Shown: positions 693 through 4,930, numbered from the stretch's first letter. The stretch: DNA of 61,697 nt from Vampirovibrionales bacterium (GCA_046080605.1 JBJTUH010000094.1:1-61697); one strand, 5' to 3'. A program made the numbers and translations. The notes: generated by a model from the sequence alone, not told the origin.

Positions 693-1502
693 TTAAGGCT
701 GAAGACGAAAAAACTCCTGTAAAATATGTTCCATCTGTTCCATCATGGTAGGTAGGGACATCATCAGAATCCCCAACGCAAGCACTGGCTTAATCGTGTT
801 ACTAATTTGAAAGACAGGGATTTGCTGTGCTGTACGGTTTAAAATACCAAGCATCACATCTAAAGCCAATGTTACCACCAAAGTAGGAGCACTCATGGCA
901 AGTGCGACAGGCAAAATGCTATTAATACTCTCAACGACAAGATCCATATTCAGGGTTTCCAATAAAGTATTTTGTAGCATAAACACTGGAATATGTTGAA
1001 TACTCGCACTCAGTGCTTCAATGAGTTGGTGCATTCCACCAATGCTAATAAAAAGCCATGTGGCAATCGCAAGAAAGACGGGTTCAAGAATCATACTTTG
1101 AGACCGTGTTGAGGGGTCAAACATCGCCGCCATATTCAAACCTGCTTGGTTTGTAATGAGGTTTCCTGTGGCACCAATGGTTTGAACGGCAAGGTTTGCC
1201 ATCATGCCTAGAATAAGTCCTACAGTCGCATTTGCAAAAATTTGTAGCACCATAAACGTGGGGCTTACCTCGGTCAAAGCCGTATATTGCCGTATGAGTT
1301 CAGGGTGTGCCTGCAACATACATACGCATACCATGACCCCTAACGCTGTTTTCATTTGCCCAGGAATATCTTTTCTGCCAAACACAGGAGCCGTGTGCAT
1401 AAAGGCAAGCACTCTTGAGAGAAGCAACAACCCTGTATCAACCCATGGTTGGTAGGTTGTGTACAGGGTACCATAGGCTTGCAATGCTGGCTCAAATGCC
1501 AT
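693..1502 (-). CDS. fliR: type III export gate protein FliR/SctT family (paralog 1)
   Basis: 269-aa polytopic membrane ORF immediately after fliP-fliQ. Its ATG overlaps the fliQ stop (TAATG, 1500-1504). N-terminal segment ...APVFGRKDIPGQMKTALG... is FliR-like. Confidence 0.8.
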   Translation of the reverse strand: MAFEPALQAYGTLYTTYQPWVDTGLLLLSRVLAFMHTAPVFGRKDIPGQMKTALGVMVCVCMLQAHPELIRQYTALTEVSPTFMVLQIFANATVGLILGMMANLAVQTIGATGNLITNQAGLNMAAMFDPSTRSQSMILEPVFLAIATWLFISIGGMHQLIEALSASIQHIPVFMLQNTLLETLNMDLVVESINSILPVALAMSAPTLVVTLALDVMLGILNRTAQQIPVFQISNTIKPVLALGILMMSLPTMMEQMEHILQEFFRLQP

Positions 1503-1855
1503 TAGGGTCTATCCTCTCCTAATTTAGGAGGCTTACTTATCACATAACGAGGGGTTGCCGTATGACTATCTAGGACTGTTTCACGTCCTTCAGGAATCTG
1601 CTGAAAAGCAATTTGCATACTTTCTACCAGATAATCCCCCATCATATCCAGTAAAATAGGGCCTCCTACAATTAAAATAACCCCGATAATCAAAATCTTA
1701 GGAACCGTTGTTAAGGTTTGTTCTTGTAATTGGGTGACAGCTTGAATCACACCAATCACAAGCCCGATAATGGCAGCTAAACTAATCATTGGCACCGAAA
1801 TCAGGAGTACCAAACTAAAGCCGTGTTTCACATGTTCAAGTAAAATATCTTGCAT
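1502..1855 (-). CDS. fliQ: type III export gate protein FliQ/SctS family (paralog 1) with a C-terminal tail
   Basis: FliQ core ...GLVIGVIQAVTQLQEQTLTTVPKILIIGV.... I prefer the ATG at 1855 over the ORF-track GTG at 1882. About 30 aa extend beyond normal FliQ length. Confidence 0.85.
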   Translation of the reverse strand: MQDILLEHVKHGFSLVLLISVPMISLAAIIGLVIGVIQAVTQLQEQTLTTVPKILIIGVILIVGGPILLDMMGDYLVESMQIAFQQIPEGRETVLDSHTATPRYVISKPPKLGEDRP

Positions 1856-1925
1856 ACAAACGAGAATGTCCTTGCCTAACACTGAAAACTTTTAGATCAA
1901 AGCACCTGAACTATCACACAAACGA

Positions 1926-2594: not shown

Positions 2595-3292
2595 GGCTGA
2601 AAAGGACTCCGAAACTGTTGGAAGGAAGGTTTAGTCACGGTGGCTTGGGAAGATACCGTAGGAAACAACCTACTTTGTGGCAACCCTGCCATGGCAAATG
2701 ACTCATGCTCTGTGATCACTTCCTTACGAGGAGGCATCACAGAGGAAGGGGTATCATCTAGGGGCATACGGTTAGAAGGAACCCACTGTGCGGGAAGCTC
2801 ATGCCCAAGAATGACAGGAGGGTGTAGGCTACTGGTAATCACCCACTGTTGCGTAGGTGCAAGCCAATGAAGGGTATGGTGCGTATCAAGAGGGTAGCTC
2901 TGAGGTGCCTGTGTCTCATGGGGAGCTGCAGGTATAGAAGATGGTTGGAAAGCCTGTACTTCGGGTATCTTTGGGGGGGCTACGACAGAAGGGGTAGACG
3001 TTTCAGGGGTCAAAGGCAATGTCACTTCCATAGGACGCTGAGATGCCATGGCAGGATGACGCATCCAAGGAAAACGCTCTACCAAATGATGTAAAGAGGT
3101 TTTCACCCGTACTTCATGAGAGGGACTTCGCTTAATCCAGACATACATACCACATAAACAGGCAATCGCTGTACCTGTAGCACCCAACAATTGGGCAAAG
3201 TACATCCACAAAGGTTTCGCATGATGCGTATAGCCCATGGCCTGTTGGGCAAGAGGTTGAGCCGTATGTAAAGGCACATCAAAAGCCATCAT
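2591..3292 (-). CDS. FliO-like single-pass membrane protein (positional call only)
   Basis: One TM helix (LWMYFAQLLGATGTAIACLCGMYVWI) followed by a Pro-rich tail. It sits in the fliO slot between the fliN-like gene and fliP. ATGATG at 3292 preferred over the GTG at 3319. There is no sequence-level proof of FliO homology. Confidence 0.35.
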   Translation of the reverse strand: MMAFDVPLHTAQPLAQQAMGYTHHAKPLWMYFAQLLGATGTAIACLCGMYVWIKRSPSHEVRVKTSLHHLVERFPWMRHPAMASQRPMEVTLPLTPETSTPSVVAPPKIPEVQAFQPSSIPAAPHETQAPQSYPLDTHHTLHWLAPTQQWVITSSLHPPVILGHELPAQWVPSNRMPLDDTPSSVMPPRKEVITEHESFAMAGLPQSRLFPTVSSQATVTKPSFQQFRSPFQP

Positions 3293-3349
3293 CAAACCCC
3301 TTTCAACAAGAAAAAACACCGTAAAAAAGACACGATAAACACCCTCATG

Positions 3350-4930
3350 CTAGACTCCCGTGGCACTGCCTCCTTGGGGGGGCTGGTGAGCAACCTCATG
3401 AATGAGTACTCCAAACTGCTCCCCGATAATGACTAATTCACCAAAGGCAAGCGTATTCCCCTCAACGTGTAAACGAATATGCTTCCCTCGTAACTCCCCC
3501 AATTCAAGTACAAGCCCTTGCGTGACTTGCTTGAGTTGTTTAAGAGGCATTTGAATAGGGTCAAAACTGGCTTGCACATCAATGAGTAAATCATCCCATT
3601 GAGGAGACATTGCCCCAGTAGAAGGAGCAGGCGACGACATGGGGGAAGGAGGAGACATCATAGGGGAAACTAAAACCTCAGATTGAGAGAGCGAAGAGAA
3701 CGATGAAAGAGAAGACACTGAAGCATACGCCTGCCTATCCTGCTGAACCGCTTGCTTCAACATAGCAGCCACATGCGGTGGGTACTGTTGCAATTGAGGT
3801 ACCACACAACGCACTTGCGTTTTAACCACAGGGTGTTTAGTCAAAAAATGATGCCCTAAGCGTTGTTTGAAATATCCATAATTACGAGGCTGAACCCACT
3901 GGCATAGTTGTAACCAAGGCGCTTGACTTTTCTCTAAAAGTAATAAATCACCTGGAGAAAGTTGACGCATTTCCCGCAAGGTACTTAGGGTACTACCTGC
4001 AGAGAACGTGACACGAGTCGTAATAGGTTCCCACGCACCAGAAGTATGCAAAGGTAAAATAGGGTATTGTGTTTGACCCGCATGAAGCCCTGTGGTATGA
4101 GGGGTAAAGGCTTTCAACGGTGCTTGAATCCACCACTTCCCAAGCAATTCAGGCTCAATGGCATCAGCCTCTAGGCTAGCATCCTGATGAGAAGACTGCA
4201 GAGACTGACTACCTTGAGTATGCGTGTGTTGCAGCACTAAGAACCCTACATGAAGCATCTCAGGTTGTAATGCCAACGGGAACCACTCATCCATAAAACG
4301 AGCTTCCACCAAGGCATTAAAACAACGCTCATGGCAATGGTCAATTAAAAAGGCATCTAAAGAAGAAGGTTTTCCTTGAGTAGACTCACCATGTAAATGC
4401 TCCCCAAGTGCGGACGCTAAAAGCTTTCCTTGTAATGCAAGAGGCATTTTAAAGTGGACTTGGCGCTGTTGGGTATCATCGAGAATAATGGTACTTTGGT
4501 AGCAATGTTCTAAACGCTCTAAGCCTTCAGGCAGATGGCTCACCATCCAAGGTTTTAAGCGAATCCCTTGTCCCCAATATTGTTGCATTAGAGCTTCCAA
4601 CATAGGCAGAATACGCCACGTTGCTTCCATGACATGCTTACACTGCTGATGCAACACATGATGTTTCCCTTGGTGTCCTCCTGCGAATGAAGTCTCTACC
4701 ACAGGTGCAACATGTCTGGATTTCTTGGATGGCTTACCTTTAGGCACTAGGGTGGCTTGTTGTCCTGTCGTAGGTTGCCAAGAACTTAAAAGCGTTTGTG
4801 CAGAGTGTTGCAAGGTTTCACGCTGTGTCGCTTGCGATATCACCACAGGAGCTTCAGGAAACACCACCGAAGCGGTGGGGTCTAACGCAGTTGCGGGATG
4901 GTTGGTATCAGGAGGAAGGAATCGTGTCAT
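3350..4930 (-). CDS. 526-aa protein with a C-terminal FliN/SctQ (SpoA) domain; N-terminal ~440 aa unknown
   Basis: The C-terminus ...PLKQLKQVTQGLVLELGELRGKHIRLHVEGNTLAFGELVIIGEQFGVLIHEV matches the FliN/YscQ surface-presentation-of-antigens domain. ATG at 4930 preferred over GTG at 4942. Confidence 0.65.
   Translation of the reverse strand: MTRFLPPDTNHPATALDPTASVVFPEAPVVISQATQRETLQHSAQTLLSSWQPTTGQQATLVPKGKPSKKSRHVAPVVETSFAGGHQGKHHVLHQQCKHVMEATWRILPMLEALMQQYWGQGIRLKPWMVSHLPEGLERLEHCYQSTIILDDTQQRQVHFKMPLALQGKLLASALGEHLHGESTQGKPSSLDAFLIDHCHERCFNALVEARFMDEWFPLALQPEMLHVGFLVLQHTHTQGSQSLQSSHQDASLEADAIEPELLGKWWIQAPLKAFTPHTTGLHAGQTQYPILPLHTSGAWEPITTRVTFSAGSTLSTLREMRQLSPGDLLLLEKSQAPWLQLCQWVQPRNYGYFKQRLGHHFLTKHPVVKTQVRCVVPQLQQYPPHVAAMLKQAVQQDRQAYASVSSLSSFSSLSQSEVLVSPMMSPPSPMSSPAPSTGAMSPQWDDLLIDVQASFDPIQMPLKQLKQVTQGLVLELGELRGKHIRLHVEGNTLAFGELVIIGEQFGVLIHEVAHQPPQGGSATGV

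Follow-up and report, generated by a model that had tools for sequence, protein, structure and literature searches.

The window analysed here is a stretch of 61,697 nt from a Vampirovibrionales bacterium (GCA_046080605.1, JBJTUH010000094.1:1-61697), and our subject is a group of type III export-gate genes near its beginning, which we call module 1. Module 1 lies on the minus strand at 693-4930 (or 4942) and consists of five consecutive open reading frames (ORFs), encoding a SpoA-domain protein, a FliO-like protein and members of the FliP, FliQ and FliR families. The SpoA-domain protein (3350-4930 or 3350-4942; 526 or 530 aa) contains FliMN_C as its only Pfam domain (51.8 bits, residues 451-517). 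It is followed by the FliO-like protein (2591-3292, 233 aa, or 242 aa from a GTG at 3319), assigned by its position and its single transmembrane helix, by the FliP-family gate subunit (1926-2594, 222 aa; PF00813, 228.6 bits vs. a cut-off of 26.9), by the FliQ-family subunit (1502-1855, 117 aa, or 126 aa from a GTG at 1882; PF01313 Bac_export_3, 74.1 bits vs. 25) and by the FliR-family subunit (693-1502, 269 aa; PF01311 Bac_export_1, 165.2 bits vs. 27.8).

The fliO-like and fliP genes are joined by an ATGA overlap at 2594-2591, the start of fliR overlaps the stop of fliQ in a TAATG at 1504-1500, and a Shine-Dalgarno (SD)-like aaagggg precedes the fliO-like ATG at 3292. Judged by its sequence, module 1 is an intact operon with the look of an expressed one. 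A promoter and terminator scan of the window performed no better than on shuffled sequences. Beyond fliR, bases 1-692 hold only short plus-strand ORFs and no flhB/sctU-like gene.

A second fliPQR set, module 2, is present in the same window and is of the flagellar type, with fliP at 30534-31493 (minus strand, 319 aa), fliQ at 30166-30444, fliR at 29300-30163 and an adjoining flhB, which carries the NPTH motif, at 28140-29252. The FliP of module 2 has a signal-peptide-like start and then ~80 extra residues ahead of the FliP domain; many FliP representatives in a library clustered at 50% carry far longer N-terminal extensions, up to 760 aa in total length. A preliminary description of this DNA had reported two complete fliP-fliQ-fliR sets, flhB with NPTH beside the second, translational coupling at both junctions of the first, and no flhB or sctU after its fliR. 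The ORFs and Pfam families at 693-4930 and 28140-31493, together with the motifs and junctions given above, bear out all of this.

Family assignment of the gate proteins

The NCBIfam models were calibrated with true members, namely module 2, a Bacillota FliP, Yersinia Ysc and rhizobial Rhc. Module-1 FliP narrowly passes the flagellar fliP model TIGR01103 (221.5 bits, cut-off 217.45) and falls under the cut-off of the SctR model TIGR01102 (196.5 bits vs. 208.6). Module-1 FliQ scores 71 bits on the fliQ model TIGR01402 (cut-off 88.9) and 53.9 bits on the SctS model TIGR01403 (cut-off 76.5), and module-1 FliR scores 150 bits on the fliR model TIGR01400 (cut-off 168.6) and 122 bits on the SctT model TIGR01401 (cut-off 163); the FliQ and FliR of module 2, at 82.9 and 124.7 bits, are also under the flagellar cut-offs. 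Each of the three module-1 proteins is under its Sct cut-off and under its own score on the flagellar model, so that none of them qualifies as an injectisome gate subunit.

Expressed as flagellar/Sct pairs, the module-1 scores are 221.5/196.5 (FliP/SctR), 150/122 (FliR/SctT) and 71/54 (FliQ/SctS), and those of module 2, in the same order, are 267/181, 125/75 and 83/66. The Bacillota FliP gives 296/190, Yersinia Ysc gives 192/318, 126/256 and 79/116, and rhizobial Rhc gives 173/295 and 89/260 for FliP/SctR and FliR/SctT. On these scores, module 1 is flagellar-side for FliP, FliQ and FliR, yet both less flagellar and more Sct-like than the true flagellar proteins tested, its values falling between those of true FliP/Q/R and true SctR/S/T. 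The model NF009438 (EscR/YscR/HrcR subfamily) is passed by module-1 FliP (223 bits, cut-off 179), but it is also passed by true FliPs at 200-206 bits. Against solved structures in the PDB, module-1 FliP scores 196 bits with Salmonella FliP and 135-146 bits with SpaP. In clustering at 50%, the module-1 FliP clade is a single representative (241 bits), and the next ordinary FliPs follow at ~198 bits.

The protein had been described as an SctR-like FliP, which is correct in part. It has 222 aa, no signal peptide and some SctR-type residues (MSPT-ISLPFK, FVAVDGW and GLV-SF); however, it scores higher on the FliP model, and the alignment gives it flagellar-type lengths and indels without the SctR-specific insertions, and R, not K, in the TSF-R motif. 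The missing signal peptide is not diagnostic of SctR, because the Bacillota FliP (224 aa) also lacks one. The Met-rich loop GMMMMSP is kept in module-1 FliP, as is the motif QAVTQxQEQT in module-1 FliQ. The C-terminal tail of this FliQ, already noted from the window alone as ~30 aa long, is a family trait that reaches ~75 aa in most orthologues. Between modules 1 and 2, FliP is 44% and FliR 25% identical.

The FliO-like protein

The window FliO-like protein, encoded immediately upstream of fliP, has one transmembrane helix, a stretch resembling the FliO core and a tail rich in Pro; neither Pfam nor NCBIfam gives a match to it. The gene in the same slot in relatives matches PF04347 FliO with 29.2 (L042), 28.1 (L015) and 26.4 bits (L004), over a cut-off of 22. 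By these matches the gene in this slot is a true FliO in the relatives, and the description of a transmembrane, Pro-rich protein in the fliO position holds. The product of 2591-3292 is likely an assembly factor for FliP. We know of no fliO in injectisomes.

The SpoA-domain protein and its internal start

The 526-aa SpoA protein is built of an N-domain (residues ~95-300), a degenerate first SpoA domain (SPOA1, ~300-400), a Pro/Ser-rich linker and a FliN-type second SpoA domain (SPOA2, ~445-517). The SctQ model TIGR02551 (SpaO_YscQ) aligns over residues 305-516 with 62.9 bits, under its cut-off of 100.8, and the FliN model TIGR02480 gives 44.8 bits. By hhalign, the SpoA family aligns with YscQ over its full length at a probability of 98%, and SPOA2 alone aligns with FliN and SctQ at 98%; SPOA1 alone is weak, with 56% to YscQ 162-207 and 44% to FliM 256-288, i.e., in the C-terminal domain of FliM. 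A profile search of the PDB gave SPOA2 49-58 bits with FliN vs. 20-36 bits with SctQ-C fragments. Because of the TIGR02551 and hhalign alignments, together with an SPOA2 that is nearer to FliN, the predicted architecture is SctQ-like, equivalent to a FliM-FliN fusion, with a flagellar sequence affinity. The protein is likely a cytoplasmic sorting-platform or C-ring-like component. The preliminary description had seen a lone C-terminal SpoA domain on a body that could not be placed; the C-terminal domain stands, whereas part of the body now has a place, given the alignment at 305-516 and the weak second SpoA-like region at ~300-400.

Among 30 aligned orthologues, identity to the window protein is 18-27%, with 42% and 70% for the two closest. 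The plan common to them is an N-domain of ~170 aa, a segment GK--IS-P / V-G-T---L-DL--LE--DIVVLE, a linker and a well-conserved SPOA2; orthologue lengths run from 370 to 530 aa. Protein searches with the SpoA sequence alone and then with the SpoA family profile returned 3 proteins each. Most orthologues end in a low-complexity linker and a conserved acidic/aromatic motif, ..EEFDYSDFELDDEDI (e.g., L018:8297-9493), an acidic tail that is absent from the window clade (window, P0122, P0123) and from other Vampirovibrionales.

An in-frame ATG with a Shine-Dalgarno sequence stands 5-14 codons ahead of SPOA2 in 65 of 79 orthologues (GGAGG in 43), compared with 3.1% for other internal ATGs, and several further orthologues have GTG at this point instead. 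The pattern resembles a conserved internal start, from which most orthologues would make a short, FliN-like product. In YscQ, SpaO and Spa33, an internal start yields the short SctQ-C product.

Distribution, conservation and selection

Relatives of module-1 FliP at 61-93% identity number in the hundreds and come from metagenome-assembled genomes of Vampirovibrionales, Vampirovibrio and Melainabacteria. In other Vampirovibrionales (L002, L003, L004) the same operon sits between unrelated housekeeping genes on long contigs, that of L002 measuring 2.55 Mb. With one genome per species, a scan recovered the operon from at least 80 genomes, which belong to Vampirovibrionales and Gastranaerophilales; most of the loci are from gut Gastranaerophilales, and FliP is 53-67% identical. 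The conserved layout in these loci is SpoA (~400 aa), FliO, FliP (213 aa), FliQ (~163 aa) and FliR (~260 aa), almost always stand-alone. In two of them, L018 and L019, modules 1 and 2 share a contig, and therefore both predate the split between Vampirovibrionales and Gastranaerophilales.

Ratios of nonsynonymous to synonymous substitution rates (dN/dS) were taken against the closest relative, L003, with saturated dS, and amount to 0.09 for SpoA, 0.17 for the FliO-like protein, 0.05 for FliQ and 0.04 for FliR; for FliP, dS was not computable, dN is 0.054 and amino-acid identity is 93%. As far as these ratios and the retained motifs tell, module 1 is under purifying selection, and the decay that had been named as a possible way for the preliminary reading to fail is not what is found.

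A look at the DNA ahead of 75 orthologous operons found no sigma-28 promoter. Gastranaerophilales (e.g., L090, L082, L024) instead have a conserved CCATTAAA-GTTGATGTGAAG in front of the SpoA gene, with TATAAT ~17 nt on, which looks like a sigma-70-type promoter, TTGATG...TATAAT.

Most Gastranaerophilales operons have an extra ORF of ~122 aa, with a signal peptide, between fliQ and fliR (L024:11127-11501, L022:1641-2018, L029:11131-11490 and ~40 others). It matches PF13629 (pilus-formation N-terminal region) weakly, with 23.8 bits vs. a cut-off of 23 in L024, and it is not present in the window operon. At L013:9654-11445 (Caenarcaniphilales, GCA_033762475.1) there are only fliO (116 aa), fliP (220 aa) and a FliQ of 261 aa with a long Pro/Ser-rich tail, with no SpoA gene upstream and no adjacent fliR, in agreement with the published Caenarcaniphilales gene table.

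Phylogenetic position

All trees were built by neighbour-joining (NJ) on corrected distances, with thin flagellar sampling. In a 171-sequence FliP tree, the module-1 clade has 100% and the SctR clade 94% bootstrap support. In a 26-taxon tree of concatenated FliP, FliQ and FliR, both module 1 and Sct have 100%, and the split of module 1 plus Sct from six flagellar references plus two module-2 sets is recovered at 94-98% in concatenated trees, also under gamma corrections and with the fastest 40% of sites removed. Module 2 clusters with the flagellar references in these trees, and modules 1 and 2 appear as sisters in 0% of bootstrap replicates. It follows from the NJ trees and the absent sisterhood that module 1 would be an old lineage that joins the tree near the injectisome branch and outside the flagellar gates sampled, with long-branch attraction possible; it is, on the same trees, not a recent copy of the flagellar set. 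Columns diagnostic of flagellar vs. Sct proteins (8 in P, 0 in Q and 2 in R) are mixed and decide nothing. The outcome once named as telling for two ordinary flagella, both sets branching inside flagellar clades, is thus not seen in the concatenated trees, and the placement from FliP alone is taken up below.

Other parts of the machine

Two rod-type genes stand elsewhere in the window, amid housekeeping genes. A FlgF-like protein (11135-11941, plus strand, 268 aa) and a FlgG-like protein (12014-12745, plus strand, 243 aa) both have the Pfam FlgE/F/G D1 domain and score 85.9 bits on the flgF model (cut-off 178.5) and 146 bits on the flgG model (cut-off 252.75), respectively. These divergent genes are candidate members of the module-1 system, by inference. 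A metagenome scan with the FlgG-like protein for a second rod/MS-ring cluster found no relatives. No secretin, needle, SctD/J/V/N/U or translocon genes were found in the 10 kb or less that flank module 1 on each side, be it in the window or in 80 related loci.

Published inventories hold further duplicates. For V. chlorellavorus, Table S3 of Soo et al. 2015 (PMC4451040) lists fliP-Q-R-flhB-flhA and, separately, fliR-Q-P-fliO-spoA, all under 'flagella' without comment. The same table gives a second fliH-flhA pair, a second flhB, a second flgF-flgG-flgB-flgC-fliE-fliF cluster and two each of motAB, flgE and fliJ, together with one each of fliG, fliM, fliN, fliI, fliD and fliK, for an organism with a single polar flagellum (PMC4451040). 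Non-motile Gastranaerophilales retain only FlgB/C/F/G, FliE, FlhA, FlhB, FliI, FliJ, FliP and FliR, with FliP and FliR gene numbers 2-3 apart and flhB elsewhere (Soo et al. 2014, PMC4040986, supplementary table). This spacing suggests the module-1 layout, including the extra ORF between fliQ and fliR. A Caenarcaniphilales genome in the same study retains FlhA, FlhB, FliI, FliP and FliR (PMC4040986). Di Rienzi et al. 2013 (PMC3787301) found 13 flagellar genes common to all four genomes that they studied, including MEL.A1, a genome without filament, cap, junction and L/P rings. According to a 2026 preprint, ~25% of Gastranaerophilales genomes have complete flagellar sets, the others keeping flhB, fliI, flgG and more, and the subset retained in the ~75% is 'postulated' to serve secretion. 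Our literature search found no paper recognising two paralogous systems.

At L044:16640-18118 (minus strand; Gastranaerophilales), a soluble protein of 492 aa joins a ~140-aa N-terminal region to the C-terminal, cytoplasmic portion of FlhA alone (Pfam FHIPEP positions 309-653 of 657); it lacks a transmembrane domain, and no fragment lies upstream. It may be the 'second flhA' of the published inventories. FliI-like matches beside module 1 in L055 and L079 (127-140 bits) were rejected, since their scores and the sizes of neighbouring ORFs make them look like F-type ATP synthase subunits. In L042, a true type III secretion system (T3SS) ATPase adjoins a subunit of the ATP-synthase alpha/beta family (V/A-type).

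Interpretation and alternatives

We lean, by a modest degree of confidence, towards reading module 1 as the gate of a second type III export machine, ancient, flagellum-derived and probably not for motility, which would be characteristic of the class Vampirovibrionia (Melainabacteria). To what is observed, namely how the operon is built, which families its proteins belong to, its conservation, the purifying selection on it and its deep divergence from the flagellar set as well as from injectisomes, this reading adds what we infer, namely that the parts work together, that their use is other than motility and that they export substrates. Module 1 would supply the FliP-FliQ-FliR core channel, the FliO assembly factor and a platform protein that resembles a FliM/FliN fusion with SctQ architecture. 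The remaining parts, i.e., FlhA, FlhB, the ATPase complex, the MS-ring protein, FliE and rod proteins, would be encoded elsewhere in the genome as paralogues of motility genes, and the swimming flagellum would most likely be built on module 2 (fliPQR-flhB). Module 1 would then nucleate a separate basal body with a rod but with no recognisable hook-filament, L/P rings or motor. Because, according to the published tables, lineages that have no hook, filament, switch or stators still keep this gate layout, such a basal body would probably export or secrete proteins, or else help to build an envelope structure that does not rotate.

Several points weigh against this reading. Published gene tables and gene-number spacing are what ties module 1 to the other duplicates and module 2 to the motile flagellum. 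Neither a substrate nor an outer-membrane component nor a counterpart of needle or hook was identified for the machine. The second motAB and flgE of V. chlorellavorus are left unexplained and would fit a second motile organelle. Under dense sampling, in the 171-sequence FliP tree, module 1 pairs with SctR in only 29% of replicates. The proposed check of SpoA residues 1-440, run with hhalign, brought out the weak SPOA1 at ~300-400, but the N-domain has no significant hhalign match to FliM, FliY or SctQ, and an AlphaFold2 model of the 526-aa protein from a 3-sequence alignment had a mean predicted local distance difference test score of 34 and was unusable. Finally, the window gene has no clear internal start, and neither do the other Vampirovibrionales genes (7 of the 14 genes without SD and ATG).

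A bolder version of the same idea is possible but rather doubtful. Module 1 would be the gate of a third deep type III lineage, rod-bearing, motorless and filamentless, conserved throughout Vampirovibrionia, standing between flagellar and injectisome gates and using an SctQ-type platform protein with an internal start, and it would be either a living relative of the flagellum-to-injectisome intermediate or a parallel and independent exaptation of the export apparatus of flagella.

That module 1 is a relic, the slowly decaying ancestral gate of the one true Melainabacteria flagellum, with module 2 as a spare acquired later or horizontally, appears unlikely. It would agree with the wider distribution of module 1 relative to module 2 and with earlier authors, who took the retained subsets as ongoing loss (PMC3787301; PMC4040986). 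However, dN/dS is 0.04-0.17 and the translational coupling is intact, and decay would not preserve the family-specific FliQ tail, the internal SD and ATG and the acidic SpoA tail in an operon conserved across two orders; moreover, it is module 2 that groups with the flagellar references and has flhB at its side, in the manner of canonical flagellar operons.

Ordinary dual flagella, in which module 1 would be the gate of a second complete motile flagellum as in the lateral and polar systems of Vibrio or Aeromonas, are quite unlikely. The two fliPQR sets in the window, the flagellar order fliN-fliO-fliP-fliQ-fliR, and the two sets of motAB, flgE, fliF and rod genes listed for V. chlorellavorus would be expected of such a system, but the single fliG, fliM, fliN, fliI, fliD and fliK and the single polar flagellum of that species would not (PMC4451040). 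Genomes without hook, filament, motor and switch genes list one fliP and one fliR whose spacing fits module 1, and the 75 orthologous operons have no sigma-28-type promoter upstream. Of the two readings left side by side by the preliminary description, the flagellum-derived non-flagellar device with its parts elsewhere thus gains from the duplicates (PMC4451040), and the full second flagellum loses, with one fliG, fliM, fliN and fliI.

Module 1 could also be a condition-specific alternative core in the same basal body, sharing FliF, FlhA and FlhB and altering export specificity, which we consider distinctly unlikely. Module 1 has no adjacent flhB or flhA of its own, and the list for V. chlorellavorus has a single fliI and a single fliG, as a swapped gate would have it; the published tables, however, show a separate second flhA, flhB, fliF and rod genes, and module 1 persisting where the flagellum is gone. 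A true injectisome, with module 1 as SctQRST and secretin, needle and translocon genes elsewhere, is very improbable: the FliP without signal peptide and with some SctR-type residues, its NF009438 score of 223 bits over a cut-off of 179, the SctQ-like SpoA architecture with an internal start in most orthologues and the position beside the Sct clade in NJ trees are outweighed by scores under the SctR, SctS, SctT and SctQ cut-offs with each protein higher on its flagellar model, by true FliPs also passing NF009438 at 200-206 bits, by the presence of fliO, by the absence of SctR insertions, of an adjacent sctU and of secretin, needle or translocon genes in the 80 loci (10 kb or less on each side), by an SPOA2 nearer FliN than SctQ-C and by duplicated partners that are flagellar rod genes in the published tables. 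The evidence so far makes module 1 a real and conserved feature that is no injectisome, no ordinary second flagellum and no relic.

Public records already label these genes flagellar, and it has been published that partial sets are retained. Until now, the partial 'flagellar' sets of non-motile gut Melainabacteria have been put down to decay or, more loosely, to a secretion device that may exist. The apparent novelty lies in seeing here an old paralogous lineage of its own, in which flagellar traits are mixed with those of injectisomes. Our analysis argues for an ancient and separate paralogue as the gate of these partial sets, one that motile relatives carry together with a canonical gate. 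It further argues that module 1 mixes flagellar traits (fliO, rod partners, an FliN-type SpoA domain) with injectisome-like ones: its platform protein has an SctQ-like architecture with, in most orthologues, a putative internal start, some of its residues are SctR-like, and in trees it stands by the injectisome branch. If true, this bears on the origin of non-motility type III machines from flagella, and the machine could provide gut Gastranaerophilales, as well as the algal predator Vampirovibrio, with a route for secretion.

Other genes of the window

Apart from module 1, module 2 and the two rod-type genes at 11135-12745, the rest of the window is housekeeping (ribD, sepF, secY-adk, gyrB, icd, pyrG and others). 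Upstream of module 1 on the same strand, two adjacent genes at 5752-6699 and 6746-8512 (both minus) encode proteins of 315 and 588 aa without family matches. Both carry an N-terminal His-rich motif, S-P-P-HGGH-H-G, at similar positions, which occurs in no other ORF of the window or related loci, and the 588-aa protein has several hydrophobic segments. A kinship between the proteins at 5752-8512 and those beside module 2 (32295-36715) was rejected (E = 0.02-0.07). Tandem paralogues of BcsB (cellulose synthase subunit B), 831 and 825 aa, lie at 20900-23395 and 23408-25885 (both plus), with no bcsA evident beside them. A 455-aa TPR protein (12765-14132, minus), convergent with the FlgF/G-like pair, resembles SycD/LcrH-type T3SS chaperone models and PilW models only faintly, with 19 bits and thus far under the cut-offs.

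Comparison with known systems

Module 1 resembles the flagellar operons of E. coli and Salmonella (fliLMNOPQR) and Bacillus (fliY-fliO-fliP-fliQ-fliR) in gene order, in the Pfam families FliP, Bac_export_3, Bac_export_1 and FliMN_C, in the FliO of its orthologues, in a FliP that passes the fliP equivalog with flagellar-type indels and lengths, and in an SPOA2 closest to FliN. We note five differences. First, module 1 is a separate deep clade (100% bootstrap) that is never sister to the flagellar set of the same genome. Second, its FliQ and FliR are under their equivalog cut-offs, and FliQ has a conserved C-terminal tail. Third, one protein with tandem SpoA domains, of which SPOA1 is weak, replaces separate FliM and FliN. 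Fourth, the operon is stand-alone, apart from fliM, flhB and flhA. Fifth, published tables suggest that its layout is kept in genomes without hook, filament and motor genes.

With the injectisome operons of Yersinia (YscQRST) and Shigella (Spa33/24/9/29), module 1 shares the order Q-R-S-T on one strand with overlapping genes, the predicted SctQ-like succession of N-domain, weak SPOA1 and SPOA2, the internal SD and ATG ahead of SPOA2 in most orthologues, the FliP residues MSPT-ISLPFK and FVAVDGW, and, in NJ trees, a position next to the Sct clade. It differs in being under four Sct equivalog cut-offs, whereas true SctR/S/T score 116-318 bits, in having fliO between Q and R, in lacking an adjacent sctU, SctR insertions and nearby secretin, needle and translocon genes, and in a window gene without a clear internal start.

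Buchnera aphidicola has hook-basal bodies, proposed to be protein exporters, that are the remnant of its only flagellar system. In both cases export and basal-body genes are kept without flagellin or motor in non-motile lineages, and a secretion role has been proposed; in contrast to Buchnera, module 1 is a distinct paralogue beside a canonical flagellar gate in motile relatives (window, L018). Dual flagellar systems are known from Vibrio parahaemolyticus (polar and lateral) and Rhodobacter sphaeroides (fla1 and fla2), which, like the genomes considered here, carry two fliPQR sets in one genome, whereas the second set of the present system, going by the published inventory, is without its own recognisable fliG, fliM, flagellin and hook-associated genes and persists where motility genes are absent.

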